From the UHGV virus genome UHGV-0072595: a DNA stretch of 18,059 nt; one strand, written 5' to 3'. The position numbers and the translations under genes were made by a program. The DNA is from a virus. Shown piece after piece: positions 2,966-15,845 of this stretch (its first letter is position 1; each line of letters opens with the position of its first letter). The notes under the pieces were generated by a model that was not told where the DNA came from, did no database searches, and saw only the letters and a program-made list of their open reading frames with translations.

Positions 2966-3054
2966 ATGTTTGTTCTCAGAATGGACATGGCACAAGGAAA
3001 TAACGCTGATTTAATACTTCAGTCTTTGCCGCATTTAAAAATACGCGAACACCT

Positions 3055-3240
3055 TCACGATCTCCCTTCTGGCGATACATTAACGCCTGCTGAGTGTACA
3101 TGCGTCTCTGTAACTTGCTCTCCTTCACTGTGGTTGCAAGTGACATGCATATCTCCTTCGTTACCGATTAAATCTTTCATCTGACGAATGAATTCTTCGT
3201 CTGACCAGTTATCTGTAAAACTCATTTCCTGCGATACCAC
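3055..3240 (-). CDS. Small acidic hypothetical protein in the kil position (56-61 aa; GTG at 3240 or internal ATG)
   Basis: Track ORF; no good SD; position between the cIII-like ORF and erf. Confidence 0.3.
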   Translation of the reverse strand: MVSQEMSFTDNWSDEEFIRQMKDLIGNEGDMHVTCNHSEGEQVTETHVHSAGVNVSPEGRS

Positions 3241-3358: not shown

Positions 3359-3493
3359 CTATTTCATTGCGCATAACGCCTCCAGTTGTTTCTTTGCTGC
3401 TCTGATTAATTGTTTAATTCGGCGTGATAATTCAGATTCGTGCGGGTAGAAAGCGGACATGACGCCGCTACCCGCGAGCTGAAAGTGCATCAT
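3359..3493 (-). CDS. cIII-like small protein (about 44 aa)
   Basis: Track ORF 3359..3544 trimmed to ATG 3493 with AAGGAG SD at 6 nt; position (between ea10 and the recombination genes) and a short basic helical segment (ESELSRRIKQLIRAAKK) reminiscent of cIII; does not match lambda cIII closely. Confidence 0.45.
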   Translation of the reverse strand: MMHFQLAGSGVMSAFYPHESELSRRIKQLIRAAKKQLEALCAMK

Positions 3494-3568
3494 GGGTAAC
3501 TCCTTATATTTGATTGCATAACGAAAATGCCTCTCGTGAAGCATTATTGGTATGCGGTAAAGCCGCGC

Positions 3569-4398: not shown

Positions 4399-4725
4399 TC
4401 AAATAAGTGGTTTGCTGCCTAATTTCATTTTCTGGCGACCAACACAAGTCACCCCCATTTCACTGCGTGGCTTGCTGTACCATGTGCGCTGATTCTTGCG
4501 CTCAATACGTTGCAGGTTGCTTTCAATCTGTTCGTGGTATTCAGCCAGCACTGTAAGGTCTATTGGATTCAGTGCGCTTTCTACTCGTGATTTCGGTTTG
4601 CGATTCAGCGAGAGAATAGGGCGGTTAACTGGTTTTGCGCTTACCCCAACCAACAGGGGATTTGCTGCTTTCCATTGAGCCTGTTTCTCTGCGCGACGTT
4701 CGCGGCGGCGTGTTTGTGCATCCAT
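4399..4725 (-). CDS. N: Antiterminator N (lambda N-like; C-terminal residues differ slightly from my recollection of lambda N)
   Basis: Track ORF MDAQTRRRERRAEKQAQWKAANPLLVGVSAKPVNRPILSLNRKPKSRVESALNPIDLTVLAEYH... including the arginine-rich boxB-binding motif; downstream of nutL on the pL transcript. Confidence 0.9.
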   Translation of the reverse strand: MDAQTRRRERRAEKQAQWKAANPLLVGVSAKPVNRPILSLNRKPKSRVESALNPIDLTVLAEYHEQIESNLQRIERKNQRTWYSKPRSEMGVTCVGRQKMKLGSKPLI

Positions 4726-4914
4726 CTGGATTCTCCTGTCAGTTAGCTTTGGTGATTGGATGGCCGGCGCTGAACCCCGGCTTACTGGTTAGAGCGCCCG
4801 CACTACCAGTGACGCTGTCTTGAGGCGCAGATTGGTTACTGCTTGCCATGAGCGCTGTTTATACATTGGTCGAGCATCAGCCTGCTCATTCATCCAATCC
4901 CAAAGCCTTCTGCT

Positions 4915-4945
4915 TTGAATGCTGCCCTTCTTCAGGGCTTAATTT
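4915..4945 (-). promoter_or_regulatory. nutL (boxB hairpin GCCCTGAAGAAGGGC at 4915-4929 and boxA CGCTCTTA at 4938-4945, read on the minus strand)
   Basis: Exact lambda boxA and boxB motifs seen on the reverse complement. Confidence 0.85.
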
Positions 4946-4993
4946 TTAAGAGCGTCACCTTCATGGTGGTCAGTGCGTCCTGCTGATGTGCTC

Positions 4994-5056
4994 AGTATCA
5001 CCGCCAGTGGTATTTATGTCAACACCGCCAGAGATAATTTATCACCGCAGATGGTT
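4994..5056 (-). promoter_or_regulatory. pL promoter with operators OL1 (4996-5012), OL2 (5020-5036), OL3 (5040-5056); -10 GATACT (4994-4999) and -35 TTGACA (5017-5022) on the minus strand
   Basis: Three 17-bp TATCACCGC/CAACACCGC-type operator half-site pairs identical in form to lambda OL; promoter hexamers at 17-bp spacing. Confidence 0.85.
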
Positions 5057-5202
5057 ATCTGTATGTTTTTTATATGAATTTATTTTTTGCAGGGGGGGCA
5101 TTGTTTGGTAGGTGAGAGATCTGAATTGCTATGTTTAGTGAGTTGTATCTATTTATTTTTCAATAATACAATTGGTTATGTGTTTTGGGGGCGATCGTGA
5201 GG

Positions 5203-5229
5203 CAAAGAAAACCCGGCGCTGAGGCCGGG
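5203..5229 (-). terminator. Intrinsic terminator immediately after the rexB stop (CCCGGC/GCCGGG stem plus U-tract on the minus strand), tIMM-like
   Basis: Plus strand acccggcgctgaggccggg preceded by aaagaaa; on the minus strand hairpin then UUUUCUUU. Confidence 0.6.
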
Positions 5230-5664
5230 TTATTCTTGTTCTCTGGTCAAATTATATAGTTGGAAAACAAGGATGCATATATGAATGAACGATGCAGAGG
5301 CAATGCCGATGGCGATAGTGGGTATCATGTAGCCGCTTATGCTGGAAAGAAGCAATAACCCGCAGAAAAACAAAGCTCCAAGCTCAACAAAACTAAGGGC
5401 ATAGACAATAACTACCGATGTCATATACCCATACTCTCTAATCTTGGCCAGTCGGCGCGTTCTGCTTCCGATTAGAAACGTCAAGGCAGCAATCAGGATT
5501 GCAATCATGGTTCCTGCATATGATGACAATGTCGCCCCAAGACCATCTCTATGAGCTGAAAAAGAAACACCAGGAATGTAGTGGCGGAAAAGGAGATAGC
5601 AAATGCTTACGATAACGTAAGGAATTATTACTATGTAAACACCAGGCATGATTCTGTTCCGCAT
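5230..5664 (-). CDS. rexB: RexB (membrane component of the Rex abortive-infection/exclusion system, 144 aa)
   Basis: Track ORF; multi-pass hydrophobic protein of the right size immediately downstream of rexA as in lambda. Confidence 0.9.
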   Translation of the reverse strand: MRNRIMPGVYIVIIPYVIVSICYLLFRHYIPGVSFSAHRDGLGATLSSYAGTMIAILIAALTFLIGSRTRRLAKIREYGYMTSVVIVYALSFVELGALFFCGLLLLSSISGYMIPTIAIGIASASFIHICILVFQLYNLTREQE

Positions 5665-5679
5665 AATTACTCCTGATAA

Positions 5680-6519
5680 TTAATCCTTAACTTTGCCCAC
5701 CTGCCTTTTAAAACATTCCAGTATATCACTTTTCATTCTTGCGTAGCAATATGCCATCTCTTCAGCTATCTCAGCATTGGTGACCTTGTTCAGAGGCGCT
5801 GAGAGATGGCCTTTTTCTGATAGATAATGTTCTGTTAAAATATCTCCGGCCTCATCTTTTGCCCGCAGGCTAATGTCTGAAAATTGAGGTGACGGGTTAA
5901 AAATAATATCCTTGGCAACCTTTTTTATATCCCTTTTAAATTTTGGCTTAATGACTATATCCAATGAGTCAAAAAGCTCCCCTTCAATATCTGTTGCCCC
6001 TAAGACCTTTAATATATCGCCAAATACAGGTAGCTTGGCTTCTACCTTCACCGTTGTTCGGCCGATGAAATGCATATGCATAACATCGTCTTTGGTGGTT
6101 CCCCTCATCAGTGGCTCTATCTGAACGCGCTCTCCACTGCTTAATGACATTCCTTTCCCGATTAAAAAATCTGTCAGATCGGATGTGGTCGGCCCGAAAA
6201 CAGTTCTGGCAAAACCAATGGTGTCGCCTTCAACAAACAAAAAAGATGGGAATCCCAATGATTCGTCATCTGCGAGGCTGTTCTTAATATCTTCAACTGA
6301 AGCTTTAGAGCGATTTATCTTCTGAACCAGACTCTTGTCATTTGTTTTGGTAAAGAGAAAAGTTTTTCCATCGATTTTATGAATATACAAATAATTGGAG
6401 CCAACCTGCAGGTGATGATTATCAGCCAGCAGAGAATTAAGGAAAACAGACAGGTTTATTGAGCGCTTATCTTTCCCTTTATTTTTGCTGCGGTAAGTCG
6501 CATAAAAACCATTCTTCAT
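5680..6519 (-). CDS. rexA: RexA (sensor component of the Rex system, 279 aa)
   Basis: Track ORF MKNGFYATYRSKNKGKDKRSINLSVFLNSLLADNHHLQ...; matches lambda RexA as I recall it; cotranscribed with cI. Confidence 0.9.
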   Translation of the reverse strand: MKNGFYATYRSKNKGKDKRSINLSVFLNSLLADNHHLQVGSNYLYIHKIDGKTFLFTKTNDKSLVQKINRSKASVEDIKNSLADDESLGFPSFLFVEGDTIGFARTVFGPTTSDLTDFLIGKGMSLSSGERVQIEPLMRGTTKDDVMHMHFIGRTTVKVEAKLPVFGDILKVLGATDIEGELFDSLDIVIKPKFKRDIKKVAKDIIFNPSPQFSDISLRAKDEAGDILTEHYLSEKGHLSAPLNKVTNAEIAEEMAYCYARMKSDILECFKRQVGKVKD

Positions 6520-6631
6520 AATTCAATCCATTTACTATGTTATGTTCTGAGGGGAGTGAAAATTCCCCTAATTCGATGAAGATTCTTGCTCAATTGTTAT
6601 CAGCTATGCGCCGACCAGAACACCTTGCCGA

Positions 6632-7348
<717 letters not shown>

Positions 7349-7355
7349 TTAAATC

Positions 7356-7421
7356 TATCACCGCAAGGGATAAATATCTAACACCGTGCGTGTTGACTAT
7401 TTTACCTCTGGCGGTGATAAT
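7356..7421. promoter_or_regulatory. Right operator region: OR3 (7356-7372), OR2 (7379-7395), OR1 (7403-7419) with divergent pRM (leftward) and pR (-35 TTGACT 7393-7398, -10 GATAAT 7416-7421)
   Basis: Operator sequences TATCACCGCAAGGGATA, TAACACCGTGCGTGTTG, TACCTCTGGCGGTGATA read directly; these are the lambda OR sites. Confidence 0.9.
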
Positions 7422-7436
7422 GGTTGCATGTACTAA

Positions 7437-7646
<210 letters not shown>

Positions 7647-7653
7647 ATAACCC

Positions 7654-7685
7654 CGCTCTTACACATTCCAGCCCTGAAAAAGGGC
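7654..7685 (+). promoter_or_regulatory. nutR (boxA CGCTCTTA 7654-7661; boxB GCCCTGAAAAAGGGC 7671-7685)
   Basis: Exact lambda-type boxA/boxB motifs downstream of cro. Confidence 0.85.
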
Positions 7686-7764
7686 ATCAAATTAAACCAC
7701 ACCTATGGTGTATGCATTTATTTGCATACATTCAATCAATTGTTATCTAAGGAAATACTTACAT

Positions 7765-8043
7765 ATGCAACTTACAAGTACTCGCAAGAAAGCGAATGCA
7801 ATTACAAGCAACATCCTGAATCGAATTGCTGTACGTGGTCAGCGAAAGGTTGCCGACGTGTTAGGGATTAATGAATCGCAAATTTCGCGATGGAAAGACA
7901 GCTTTATCCCAAAGATGGCCATGCTTCTGGCTGTGCTGGAATGGGGTGTTGAAGACGAGGAGTTGGCGGAACTGGCTAAGCAAGTAGCCAGAATGCTGAC
8001 AAAAGAAAAAGCCCCGAAGAACGGCGAATTCTTCGAGGCCTGA
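7765..8043 (+). CDS. cII: cII-like transcriptional activator (about 92 aa; non-lambda allele)
   Basis: Track ORF 7705..8043 trimmed to ATG 7765 (AAGGA SD; same leader as lambda cII). Shares ...[20 protein letters not shown]... with lambda cII but differs elsewhere. Confidence 0.8.
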
Positions 8044-8077
8044 TGTAGAAAGACTGGATCAATCCACAGGAGTAATT

Positions 8078-8224
8078 ATGACAAAACAACTCAGTCCTTA
8101 CCAGGACAAAATTCACAAACACATACTACGTGATCGCTTCCTGTCCAGCTTCAAGCAGCCTGGTCGATTCCGGGCTGAGTTGGAAAAAGTGAAGCTGATG
8201 CAGAAGGAGAAAGGTCATGAGTAA
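8078..8224 (+). CDS. Small basic hypothetical protein (48 aa) between cII and the O-like gene
   Basis: Hand translation [48 protein letters not shown]; AGGAG SD 6 nt upstream; stop overlaps the O-like start region. Confidence 0.4.
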
Positions 8225-9077
8225 TCTTGCAACCGTAACACATTTAAGGCCTTCACAACGGCCTGTGGAGCGTCGTGTGGCAGAAGTTGAAGATGGTTAT
8301 ACCCGTCTTGCAAATGCCCTGTATGAAGAGCTTATCGGCGCAGATTTAACGAAAAATCAGAGCAAGGTTGCCCACGCCATATGCCGTAAAACATACGGCT
8401 ACGGTAAAAAGATGGATCGCATCTCTGATAGTCAGTTAGCTCAAATTACCAGGCTGCCAAGACAGAAGGTAAACAAGGCCAAGAATGAGCTTATCGCGAT
8501 GAAGGTTATCCTTCGCGAAGGCCAGCAAATCGGGCCTAACAAGAACATCGAGGAATGGCAAATCGAAGGGTGTCACTACTCTGGTGATAATGTCACTGCA
8601 TTGGTGACAAAAAGTGTCACCAAAACGGTGACAGCGCTGTCACCAAAACAGGGACACACAAAAGAAACTATTACAAAAGAAAAAAGAAATAATAAAAACA
8701 CTATGTCCGAAAGTGTTCGGACGGAGTGTGAAAAATCACATGACCGTCACGAAGAAACCGACAAGGCATTCGAGGAAATATTCTGGTGTGCAGGCATGCG
8801 GAAAGCCGGGAAGAAAAACGCAGCTTCGGCATTCAGAACACAGTTCAGGGAATGGCGTAAAACTACCAGGGGGACGGCAAGCGAGTTTGCCACGATGCTG
8901 GCAGAAGACATCGCATGCAGGAATGGTAAGCAGTTCGGATTCGACAGGTTGTTACCATCGAGCTACCTGAACGGTCAACGCTGGAACGACGAAAAGCCAG
9001 AAACCATTCAACCACAATCCAAACCATCATCCGCAATCACCGTATCGAAAACTGGCTACGTGTTTTTCGACAGGTGA
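8217..9077 (+). CDS. Replication initiator, lambda O-like N-terminal iteron-binding domain with a divergent C-terminal domain (286 aa)
   Basis: Track ORF; N-terminus shares the O-family pattern DDGYxRL...ADLTKxQxKV...RKTYGxxKxMDRIxDSQL...GPNKNIxEW with lambda O; gene contains its own iteron/AT-rich origin. Confidence 0.85.
8582..8700. repeat. Replication origin inside the O-like gene: three to four iterons built on GGTGACA/TGTCACC inverted half-sites (about 8582-8650) followed by an A-rich region
   Basis: Direct reading: ctGGTGAtaaTGTCACtgca, ttGGTGACAaaaagTGTCACCaaaac, GGTGACAgcgcTGTCACCaaaac, then acaaaagaaactattacaaaagaaaaaagaaataataaaaac. Confidence 0.7.
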
Positions 9078-9080
9078 ACC

Positions 9081-9188
9081 ATGAAATCAAAAATCAAATC
9101 GCTACTGGTCGCTGGTTATAACCACGGCTGGTTAAGTATTTCGTTTGTCGATTTCTGGTTTAAAAATCTCAATCTGAGGGAATCATGA
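9081..9188 (+). CDS. Possible small coupled ORF (35 aa) between the O-like gene and the primase-helicase
   Basis: Hand translation MKSKIKSLLVAGYNHGWLSISFVDFWFKNLNLRES; start 4 nt after the O stop; stop overlaps the primase-helicase ATG (ATGA). Confidence 0.3.
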   Translation: MKSKIKSLLVAGYNHGWLSISFVDFWFKNLNLRES

Positions 9189-11065
9189 CGCCAAGTGAAC
9201 TTAGCGACCTGCTTTGGGCGCAGGTTGACAGGGTGGCTCCGCACCTGTTGCCAAACGGCAAGAAAGAGGGGCATGAGTGGGTTGCCGGTAACATCAACGG
9301 TGACAAGGGAAACAGCCTTAAGGTCAACCTTAGCGGCAAGAAAAAATGGGCTGATTTCGCTGAGGGAGACGGCGGTGACATGCTTGATTTGTGGATGGCA
9401 TGTCGTGGAATTAACCTGCATCAGGCTATGCAGGAAGCGAAAGCATTTCTCGGTATCAAGGATGACGATCACCATTTCGATGCCAGACGTGAGAAAAAAT
9501 TCTCCAGACCTGATCGCAAGAAAATCGCCCGCTACGTTACCAGAACAGAATCCCATCTTGAGTACCTGCAATCGCGTGGCATATCGCCAGAAATCGTAAA
9601 GCGCTACGAGGTTGTCAGCGGCAAGGTGTGGAATGGAGAGCGGGAACTGGATGCTCTGGTGATTCCGTACAAACGCGATGGTGAGTTGTTGCAGGTCAAG
9701 CGAATCAGCACTGAGCGCCCGGACGGGAAGAAAGTCATTATGGCAGAAGGTGATTGCGAACCTTGTCTGTTCGGATGGCAGGCTCTGGACGCTGGCGTGA
9801 GGGCGGTTGTACTTTGCGAAGGCGAAATTGATTGTATGAGCTATGCGCAATACGGCATCTCGGCGTTATCCGTACCGTTTGGTGGAGGGAAAGGCGCTAA
9901 GCAACAGTGGATTGAGTTTGAGTATCACAACCTCGACAGGTTTGAGGAAATATTCATCTCGATGGACGTTGATGATGTTGGTCGTGAAGCCGCAAGGGAA
10001 ATCGCAAGCCGACTCGGTGAACATCGTTGCCGTCTTGTTACTCTGCCGTACAAAGACATCAACGAATGCCTGATGAACGGTGTTACCGAGGATGCAATCT
10101 GGCAGTACATCGGCACGGCATCCTACTTTGATCCTGAAGAACTCTACAGCGCGCGAGAGTTTTACCAGGACACTATCAACGCTTTCTACGGCAAGCAGCA
10201 GTATCTGTTTAATCCACCGTGGGAATCTCTGGCAGATAAATTCCAGTTCCGTGAGGCCGAGTTGACGCTGGTCAATGGTGTGAACGGTCACGGAAAAACG
10301 GAGGTTGTCGGGCATATGGCACTTGAGGCAATGCGTCAGGGTGTGAAGACGTGCATCGCGTCACTTGAGCTGAAGCCTGGTATTCTCCTTAAGCGCCTTA
10401 CCCGTCAGGCAACGTGCTGCAAGATGCCGCCAGTGCTGGAAATTGACTCTGCATTTAAATTTTATGACGAAAGACTTTGGGTGTTTGGCCTGACCGGAAC
10501 GGCGAAAGCCGACAGGCTGATCGAAATATTCGACTACGCTCGCCGCCGATACGGGATCCAGTTATTCATCATCGACAGCCTGATGAAATGTGGCATAGGC
10601 GACGATGACTATAACGGGCAGAAGGCGTTTGTTGACTCGATTTGCGACTTCAAAAACAAAACAAACTCCCACGTCATTCTCGTTACTCACTCGCGAAAAG
10701 GAGACAGCGAAGAAAAACCAACCGGGAAAATGGACGTAAAAGGCTCTGGAGCGATAACAGACCTGACAGACAACCTTTTCATCATCTGGCGTAACAAGGC
10801 TCGCGAGAGAGCGTTACAGAGAGTTCAGAGTGGTGAAAAGATGTCAGAGAAGGACGAACAGGTACTGGCGTCTCCGGCATCTGTTTTGATGCTTGAAAAA
10901 CAACGAAACGGCGAAGGTTGGGAAGGTGGTGTCCCGTTGTTCCTTGACGAGCAATCGCACCAGTTCCTGCAACTTGAATCAGGATCGCCATATAGCTACA
11001 TCGCCAATATGCCGAAATCGGAATATGACGAGGCGTGGCGACAGGAAAACGTGACGGAGTATTAA
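9185..11065 (+). CDS. Bifunctional DNA primase-helicase (N-terminal primase/Toprim-like region, C-terminal DnaB/RecA-like helicase), replaces lambda P (626 aa)
   Basis: Track ORF; acidic Toprim-like motifs (CEGEIDCMS, MDVDDVGRE), Walker A NGVNGHGKTE and Walker B-like LFIIDSLMK in the C-terminal half. Confidence 0.8.
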   Translation: MTPSELSDLLWAQVDRVAPHLLPNGKKEGHEWVAGNINGDKGNSLKVNLSGKKKWADFAEGDGGDMLDLWMACRGINLHQAMQEAKAFLGIKDDDHHFDARREKKFSRPDRKKIARYVTRTESHLEYLQSRGISPEIVKRYEVVSGKVWNGERELDALVIPYKRDGELLQVKRISTERPDGKKVIMAEGDCEPCLFGWQALDAGVRAVVLCEGEIDCMSYAQYGISALSVPFGGGKGAKQQWIEFEYHNLDRFEEIFISMDVDDVGREAAREIASRLGEHRCRLVTLPYKDINECLMNGVTEDAIWQYIGTASYFDPEELYSAREFYQDTINAFYGKQQYLFNPPWESLADKFQFREAELTLVNGVNGHGKTEVVGHMALEAMRQGVKTCIASLELKPGILLKRLTRQATCCKMPPVLEIDSAFKFYDERLWVFGLTGTAKADRLIEIFDYARRRYGIQLFIIDSLMKCGIGDDDYNGQKAFVDSICDFKNKTNSHVILVTHSRKGDSEEKPTGKMDVKGSGAITDLTDNLFIIWRNKARERALQRVQSGEKMSEKDEQVLASPASVLMLEKQRNGEGWEGGVPLFLDEQSHQFLQLESGSPYSYIANMPKSEYDEAWRQENVTEY

Positions 11066-14926: not shown

Positions 14927-15111
14927 ACGCCACAATTCAAACGATACCAGAGCTTCTTATCCAGACACGAGGCAATCAGACCGAAGTGGCTAGGATGCTT
15001 TCCTGCGCAAGAGGAACAGTGCTCAAGTACAACCGAGACAGCAAAGGCGATCGTCACGTAATAGTTAACGGCGTCCTGATGGTCAAACAGGGAAAGAGGG
15101 GAAGACGATGA
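14923..15111 (+). CDS. ninH: NinH-like protein (62 aa)
   Basis: Track ORF; ...GNQTEVARMLSCARGTVLKY... matches the NinH HTH-like core; ATGA overlaps on both sides. Confidence 0.75.
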   Translation: MNATIQTIPELLIQTRGNQTEVARMLSCARGTVLKYNRDSKGDRHVIVNGVLMVKQGKRGRR

Positions 15112-15626
15112 GCATAAGAGAACTAAACCTCACCAAAGAACAGCATGAGTGGCTGAATGGCTGGCTTGAACTGTGGGGCGCATGGGTTTATTCAGGTCGT
15201 CTGGAAAAGCGCATGAGCAGCGTAATAGCGAAGTTCATGGAGAGCGTAGAGCCGGGAAGAGTTATGACAAGGCCAATGTGTAATGATGATGATGGAATGT
15301 TGATTTCTCAGGTCGTCGATTCCGTCATGTACATTGACAAGAAAGCCTTTGGCATCCTCCTCAGCTACTACGCTCATGGTTCATCTAAGCGAGCAATTGC
15401 ATCCTACTATCACGCGACTGCAAAGCCACGCAAGATGTGTGGACGTGGTGGCGAGGGATGGAGAAAACCTTCACTGGCAACCTGTAGAAACGAAATTGAC
15501 GACATCCTGAAAGCGTCATTATTTGTTTTGTACCAACCAATGCAAAATGCTTTCAAAATGCGTAAACGTGTTGAGAAAGTTAAGCATGTTGCTGTTAAAA
15601 ACCTTGACATGCAATTAGCCATTTAG
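15108..15626 (+). CDS. Q: Late antiterminator Q (non-lambda type, 172 aa)
   Basis: Track ORF; last gene of the nin operon, immediately upstream of a pR'-like promoter, terminator hairpin and the lysis cassette; pattern WGAW...P.C.DDD resembles phage 21/82-type Q proteins (from memory). Confidence 0.7.
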   Translation: MSIRELNLTKEQHEWLNGWLELWGAWVYSGRLEKRMSSVIAKFMESVEPGRVMTRPMCNDDDGMLISQVVDSVMYIDKKAFGILLSYYAHGSSKRAIASYYHATAKPRKMCGRGGEGWRKPSLATCRNEIDDILKASLFVLYQPMQNAFKMRKRVEKVKHVAVKNLDMQLAI

Positions 15627-15689: not shown

Positions 15690-15764
15690 GGGTCAGTCGT
15701 ATAAAGGTCATTACGGAAGGCTGTTAACCTTCTTATCGTGGTTCGAGTCCACGCTGTCCCGCCA
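15690..15764 (+). tRNA. tRNA-Asn(GUU)-like gene with encoded CCA; atypical (one U-U mismatch in the acceptor stem, weak D-stem)
   Basis: Manual fold: acceptor GGGTCAG/CTGTCCC, anticodon stem GAAGG/CCTTC with loop CTGTTAA, T-arm CGTGG-TTCGAGT-CCACG, discriminator G, CCA. Confidence 0.5.
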
Positions 15765-15769
15765 AATAT

Positions 15770-15845
15770 GCTGGTTTAGCTCCAATGGTAGAGCAGTCGC
15801 CTTGTAAGCGAATGGGTAGCGGTTCAAGTCCGTTAACCAGCACCA
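15770..15845 (+). tRNA. tRNA-Thr(UGU) gene with encoded CCA
   Basis: Manual fold: perfect 7-bp acceptor GCTGGTT/AACCAGC, D-arm GCTC-CAATGGTA-GAGC, anticodon loop CTTGTAA, T-arm AGCGG-TTCAAGT-CCGTT, discriminator A, CCA. Confidence 0.65.

Follow-up and report, generated by a model that had tools for sequence, protein, structure and literature searches.

A lambda immunity region joined to an HK620/P22-type cII gene within a shared 20-nt patch at the cII start of a lambdoid phage genome

In the virus genome UHGV-0072595, of which one strand of 18,059 nucleotides was analysed in full (hereafter the window), the lambda immunity region gives way to a foreign cII allele at the start of the cII gene. 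In all likelihood this is a standard lambdoid module junction, at which lambda immunity has been joined to a cII gene of the HK620/P22-c1 kind within a 20-nt patch that both share. The arrangement is already known from wild phages whose sequences and annotations show it, and it is an ordinary case of lambdoid mosaicism. The features on which the argument draws are collected in Table 1.

When the full window was compared by blastn with lambda 29000-48502, one block proved near-perfect: window 4899-7767 matches lambda 35494-38362 at 99.9%, with 1 mismatch and 2 gaps over 2870 nt. The block includes the operators oL1-3 and oR1-3 of lambda type and a cI identical to that of lambda at 237/237 residues, and the immunity is thus imm-lambda. 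Its sole base mismatch, at position 7214, lies in cI and leaves the protein unchanged; HK544 is also unlike the window at this position. Towards cII the identity is unbroken: the 300 nt preceding the cII ATG and the ATG itself are as in lambda (303/303 nt), and where lambda 37195-38362 aligns with window 6600-7767 (99.9%) the megablast match ends at the G of the ATG (7767). Mismatches to lambda start at once past the ATG, at 7768, 7769, 7770, 7772, 7774 and onward, and across the cII coding sequence that follows nucleotide identity is 56-57%. The breakpoint is sharp, not gradual. An alignment check for gradual divergence found instead an abrupt drop, from 303/303 to 57%, and it bears out the initial annotation in reading the sequence after the ATG as a different cII allele, at 53% amino-acid and 57% nucleotide identity to lambda. 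That annotation had also taken everything from N through the cII leader to be lambda, which holds for 4899-7767 (99.9%) and fails for N itself: the N gene (minus strand, 4424-4754 or 4399-4725; Pfam N36) is only 94% identical to lambda N and lies beyond a 144-nt spacer without lambda homology (4755-4898), which separates it from the lambda-identical block. The feature had furthermore been started at 7705, which is merely an in-frame upstream ATG of a mechanical open reading frame; the true start is 7765, as in lambda.

Table 1. Coordinates of the features discussed, in window positions; functional assignments of sites and oop-like elements are predictions.
Feature	Position	Strand	Content and basis
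Lambda-identical block	4899..7767		pL/oL, nutL, rexB, rexA, cI, oR/pRM/pR, cro, nutR, tR1 region and cII leader through ATG; blastn and lambda feature table
cI repressor gene	6632..7345	-	Proposed target of pRE transcription; all 237 amino acids as in lambda cI
cro	7446..7646	+	Open reading frame inside the lambda-identical block; equals lambda cro 38041-38241
nutR boxB hairpin GCCCTGAAAAAGGGC	7671..7685	+	Read in sequence; equals lambda Nutr feature 38265-38281
Shared 20-nt patch TAAGGAAATACTTACATATG	7748..7767	both strands loaded	Identical in window, lambda, HK544, HK620, HK630 and 720R6
pRE -10 hexamer AAGTAT	7755..7760	-	Same bases as lambda; HK544 EF120455 3267-3272 annotation maps here
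cII gene, HK620/P22-c1 allele, 92 aa	7765..8043	+	Translation, Pfam, protein and DNA identities
Candidate proximal cII site TTGCGAGTACTTGT (TTGC-N6-TTGT)	7774..7787	-	Flanks pRE -35 region 7778-7783; pattern search
Second, exact TTGC-N6-TTGC TTGCTTGTAATTGC	7798..7811	-	24 bp farther from the -10 than the proximal site
oop-like antisense terminator hairpin	8009..8041	-	14-bp stem, T tract to about 7999; overlaps cII 3' end; terminator scan
oop-like promoter	8075..8103	-	-10 CATAAT at 8080->8075; position equals P22 'oop promoter' annotation
Small DUF2740 gene, hkaW / P22 orf48 homologue	8078..8224	+	Pfam DUF2740, 99.4 bits; annotated in HK620 and P22
O-like replication initiator, mEp043 type	8217..9077	+	Pfam Phage_rep_O; starts the non-lambda replication module
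626-aa Toprim/DnaB-like primase-helicase, mEp043/ES18 type	9185..11065	+	Pfam Toprim_2 and DnaB_C; in the place of lambda P

On its left the lambda-identical block begins at 4899, just promoter-side of nutL, as sharply as it ends on its right. Further left, cIII (3359-3544, minus strand; Pfam PF08134) is of the HK022/HK97/H-19B type, its DNA being 97-98.6% identical to mEpX2, HK97 and HK022, and a BLASTP comparison with lambda cIII yielded no alignment. In this phage, therefore, lambda cI and cro occur alongside a cII and a cIII that are both non-lambda.

By its sequence, the foreign allele is the HK620/HK630/P22-c1 version of cII. The encoded protein is 98% identical to that of HK620, 96% to that of HK544, 83% to P22 C1 and about 50-53% to lambda cII, and over 7768-8216, which takes in cII and the small DUF2740 gene, the DNA is 97.8% identical to HK620/HK630 and 83% to P22 c1-orf48. 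The protein matches Pfam Phage_CII (PF05269) at full length, with 141.9 bits against a cutoff of 21.3 and residues 1-91 on profile positions 1-91 of 91; there is also a weak HTH_23 match at residues 26-47. In a phmmer search it matched two structures of lambda CII, 1xwr and 1zs4, with E values of about 1e-23, and its relatives in the PDB (1xwr, 1zs4 and 8igr) are crystal and cryo-EM entries of lambda CII. The HTH recognition helix, SQISRWK, is invariant in the protein alignment of the window with lambda, HK620, HK544 and P22.

The point at which the two sequences meet can be given as a short interval. When the window, lambda, HK544, HK620, HK630 and 720R6 are aligned, the patch TAAGGAAATACTTACATATG is flanked by different sequence on one or both sides. 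Left of 7748 the window tracks lambda (...TTGTTATC) and is unlike HK620 (...TTATTTGT); right of 7767 it tracks HK620 and is unlike lambda. Because the patch is identical in lambda and in HK620/HK630, the crossover can be placed only within 7748-7767, with the ATG as the right edge of the interval. The initial annotation was thus right to see a mosaic junction at the cII start and over-precise in assigning the breakpoint to the initiation codon. The plus strand of the patch carries the cII Shine-Dalgarno sequence and the ATG, while its minus strand carries the pRE -10 and the bases to about +1. We infer that the patch is common to both parents through constraint on both strands and, from normal spacing, that the pRE start position lies within it.

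The same joint is present in other genomes. We scanned IMG/VR for the exact 20-mer, and the matches listed include 117 usable contigs. Two leader types and two cII types (lambda-type and HK620-type) occur among these 117 listed contigs in all four combinations, at 52/14/16/35, proportions that do not stand for population frequencies since the contigs were chosen by exact 20-mer among the matches listed. The combination seen in the window, a lambda-type leader with an HK620-type cII, is found in at least 14 IMG/VR contigs. Upstream, at least 12 cro-region clusters are represented among the IMG/VR matches listed, and in six of them both cII types occur; in the lambda-cro cluster, 14 listed contigs carry lambda cII and 3 the HK620-type cII, again in a sample picked by 20-mer match. 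Because both leader types occur with both cII types, we regard the site as a recurrent recombination joint. As at a boundary joint, a short sequence is identical in phages with differing flanks, and every combination of flanks exists in nature.

Among the complete E. coli genomes, 29 of 5426 wholly cover a 401-nt query across the junction (11 of them at 99.8%), and overall the window comes nearest to a prophage in E. coli KE40, with 99.6% identity over 85% of the window's length. In GenBank, HK544, HK542, HK244 and CL707 carry lambda immunity together with an HK620-type cII and are 97-98.7% identical over 6601-8087. The records of these wild phages (EF120455, EF120457-EF120459, JQ086373 and JQ086374) go back to Degnan et al. 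2007 (Mol Microbiol 64:232, cited via PMC11893012). A paper on co-transfer in lambdoid phages (PMC9836094) makes no mention of cII. A different composition is seen in vB_EcoP-720R6 (locus 2981-3221), which has a lambda-type tR1/leader and a lambda-type cII, but other cI/cro; this reveals another, independent joint to the left of nutR, in addition to that at the cII ATG.

Position, homology and putative GenBank annotation together make 7774-7787 a candidate cII site at pRE. The HK544 record (EF120455) annotates a pRE -10, a -35 and a 'CII binding site at pRE', all labelled 'putative', which correspond to window 7755-7760, 7778-7783 and 7774-7787, and the P22 record places a C1 protein_bind site at c1 +10..+23, an offset equal to that of window 7774-7787. 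The candidate TTGCGAGTACTTGT is in register with lambda TTGCGTTTGTTTGC and with P22 TTGCGAGTGCTTGT, with 13 nt to the -10 in each. Coding positions +20..+23 correspond to TTGC and +10..+13 to TTGY in the window, lambda, HK544, HK620 and P22 alike; the promoter-proximal half-site of the window is TTGT, not TTGC, and P22 likewise has TTGT. The site is invariant in 40/40 HK620-type alleles among the IMG/VR matches listed. As in targets of the CII family, direct repeats flank the -35 of the putative leftward promoter pRE, and the -10 of this promoter falls in the cII leader. The targets of CII in P22 and lambda have been described as 'the same or very similar', with the motif TTGCN6TTGC/T (PMC2629481, citing Ho et al. 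1992). The argument is positional, and motif counts were not used as evidence because they are not above chance: the window holds 3 occurrences of TTGC-N6-TTGC against 1.75 expected, and its 4 of TTGC-N6-TTGY against 2.9 expected show no enrichment. One of the motifs elsewhere in the window, at 15420-15433 on the minus strand, lies inside a Q-type gene (15108-15626, plus strand) and consists of an exact TTGCGTGGCTTTGC, 13 nt and then TAGGAT, which is the geometry of lambda pRE; antisense as it is within a Pfam Phage_antitermQ gene, it is likely a paQ-type cII-dependent antisense promoter.

In the circuit that we propose, cII would be translated off the N-antiterminated pR transcript, using the lambda-type ribosome-binding site, and would bind TTGC-N6-TTGT at 7774-7787. 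Bound cII would recruit RNA polymerase to a weak pRE (-10 AAGTAT, 7755-7760), and the leftward pRE transcript would pass antisense through cro and express lambda cI. Since the cII site falls inside the first 23 nt of the gene, the activator would travel with its own -35-flanking site whenever the exchange takes place in the patch, and the -10, the transcript start and the downstream target (antisense cro, cI) would stay lambda after such an exchange. Nothing would have had to co-evolve, since this cII probably shares the specificity of lambda cII and P22 C1.

A different view of the hybrid promoter came with the initial annotation, which saw TTGC repeats spaced N10 and proposed that the establishment promoter and cII specificity may have co-varied. 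The foreign cII would then read TTGC-N10-TTGC, activator and promoter would have changed together, and the hybrid pRE would be functionally unlike that of lambda. Plus-strand GCAA occurs at 7767, 7784, 7798 and 7808, a 10-nt gap does separate the second of these from the third, and the cII protein is only 53% identical to lambda cII. However, the gap merely divides two N6-spaced sites, 7774-7787 and 7798-7811, and inspection for a canonical site turned up an exact TTGC-N6-TTGC at 7798-7811 and a TTGC-N6-TTGT in the lambda register. Relative to both the -10 and the ATG this proximal site stands exactly where that of lambda does, and it coincides with the sites annotated for C1 in P22 and for CII in HK544; the recognition helix is invariant, and the P22 and lambda targets are described as the same or very similar (PMC2629481). 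Moreover, among the matches listed both cII types are paired with either leader type and with many kinds of cro, which argues against a coupling of specificity. With a canonical site found on inspection, co-variation of specificity is unsupported, and we hold the N10 spacing to be a highly improbable target. It is unlikely, too, that the distal TTGCTTGTAATTGC is a functional auxiliary cII site, whether it worked through tandem or cooperative binding or fed back on the cII 5' coding region. For HK620-type alleles at large, the corresponding proposal is that both N6 sites are functional, with one or two tetramers on the tandem sites giving a quantitatively altered pRE response, or cII autoregulation, for example by a roadblock in the cII 5' coding region; this we likewise consider unlikely. 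The distal sequence is an exact consensus, the HK630 annotators chose it as their cII site (it is marked 'putative cII binding site' in that record), and in 40/40 HK620-type alleles among the IMG/VR matches listed neither TTGC half is altered, variation being confined to the spacer. In 31 HK620-type alleles among the matches listed, a spacer base of TTGCTTGTAATTGC is all that varies in coding positions 1-47, and variation sets in again at 48-49. Yet P22 lacks the distal site, having CTGC there, and at 37 nt from the -10 instead of 13 it cannot act in the lambda geometry; a TTGC-N6-TTGC is expected by chance about once per 10 kb, and lambda-type alleles (n=46, among the matches listed) show comparably little variation at the 5' end, the first of it at +30. 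Since the contigs were selected for the adjacent 20-mer and lambda-type alleles are similarly invariant, conservation of the distal site is indistinguishable from linkage or ascertainment. If it did function, the HK620-type allele would have another dose-response at pRE than that of lambda, and swaps of the cII cassette at the 20-nt joint would therefore retune the lysis-lysogeny threshold of a lambda-immunity phage.

The joint itself could in principle be an assembly chimera or a laboratory hybrid, a suspicion raised by the 99.9% identity to laboratory reference lambda right up to the junction. But the same junction is carried by the independently isolated wild Hong Kong phages HK544, HK542 and HK244, and by CL707; it is shared by 29 complete E. 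coli genomes from varied hosts and by at least 14 IMG/VR contigs; and outside the junction the window forms a coherent lambdoid prophage with a 99.6% match in E. coli KE40. We give an artefact next to no credence. Gradual divergence, assembly chimera and laboratory hybrid were rejected on the sharp break, the independent wild isolates and the coherent prophage. As to how the joint arose, the four-combination pattern points to homologous exchange within the 20 nt, and an established model explains phage mosaicism by homologous recombination at short conserved boundary sequences (PMC3233612). For this particular lineage, illegitimate joins followed by selection, or longer exchanges by way of intermediate phages, may instead have produced the junction. 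The reading we prefer remains that of a natural module junction within the shared patch.

To the right of the joint, the cII cassette appears to carry its own oop-like antisense unit, judging by its sequence features. The terminator hairpin has a predicted fold of -27.9 kcal/mol (z = -4.5) and occupies the position of the annotated P22 oop terminator. In the alignment, the -10 and downstream bases of the oop-like promoter are conserved with lambda, P22 and HK620, whereas its -35 is weak, and it went uncalled in the generic promoter scan. An Rfam scan of the window for OOP or any other RNA family returned two tRNAs only. These are tRNA-Asn(GTT) at 15690-15764 and tRNA-Thr(TGT) at 15770-15845, both on the plus strand and directly downstream of the Q gene.

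Homology of the HK620 type stops at 8224 and that to HK544 at 8087, while the comparison with mEp043 gives six mismatches over about 8000-9200 (~1200 nt). Because the HK620-type and mEp043-type identities overlap, the cII cassette must have been joined to the mEp043-type replication module, made up of the DUF2740 gene, the O-like initiator and the 626-aa Toprim/DnaB-like protein, within a region shared by both types. Homology to mEp043 and Sf101 starts at 7920 and is near-perfect from about 8000, marking a second mosaic joint at about 7920-8224. Among the IMG/VR matches listed, lambda-type cII alleles are highly variable from +183, right after the conserved MLLAVLEWG coding stretch.

We see little significance in these findings beyond correct annotation of the window as a natural lambdoid prophage or phage with lambda immunity, a P22/HK620-type cII and mEp043-type replication genes. 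With the operator in the cII 5' end and the patch constrained on both strands, cII and its site would be exchangeable as a cassette that leaves the establishment circuit unbroken. The four-combination count, taken over the IMG/VR matches listed, quantifies one such joint; modular exchange at conserved boundaries is long established.

Of the known phages, HK544 resembles the window in its cI, cro and operators of lambda specificity, in its leader and in its HK620-type cII. However, the immunity of HK544, HK542, HK244 and CL707 is about 1.5% off lambda, whereas that of the window is 99.9% lambda; HK544 has two unrelated genes in the rexA/rexB position where the window keeps rexAB, and the downstream replication genes are HK97-type in HK544 and mEp043-type in the window. 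HK620 and HK630 share with the window the 20-nt leader block, the proximal TTGC-N6-TTGT and the distal TTGC-N6-TTGC, all identical, and differ from it in the cI/cro/nutR region, in the leader upstream of 7748 and in their O/P replication genes, which are of HK022 type. P22 has a homologous activator (83% amino-acid identity) with its C1 site, TTGC-N6-TTGT, at +10..+23, and it too has an oop-like terminator and promoter and the orf48 homologue downstream; unlike the window, it has the leader CTACAGGAATGTTCACATATG, a -10 of GAACAT instead of AAGTAT, no distal exact site and another immunity (c2/cro). Lambda is like the window in the Phage_CII family of its activator, in the recognition helix and in the repeats flanking the -35 inside the cII 5' coding end, and its -10, its leader and the downstream cro-antisense/cI target are identical. 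It differs in a cII of 53% amino-acid identity, in the N6 spacer and in the proximal half-site, which is TTGT in the window; the C-terminal tail of the window's cII also differs from that of lambda, NKKRPAATERSEQIQMEF, and is shorter.
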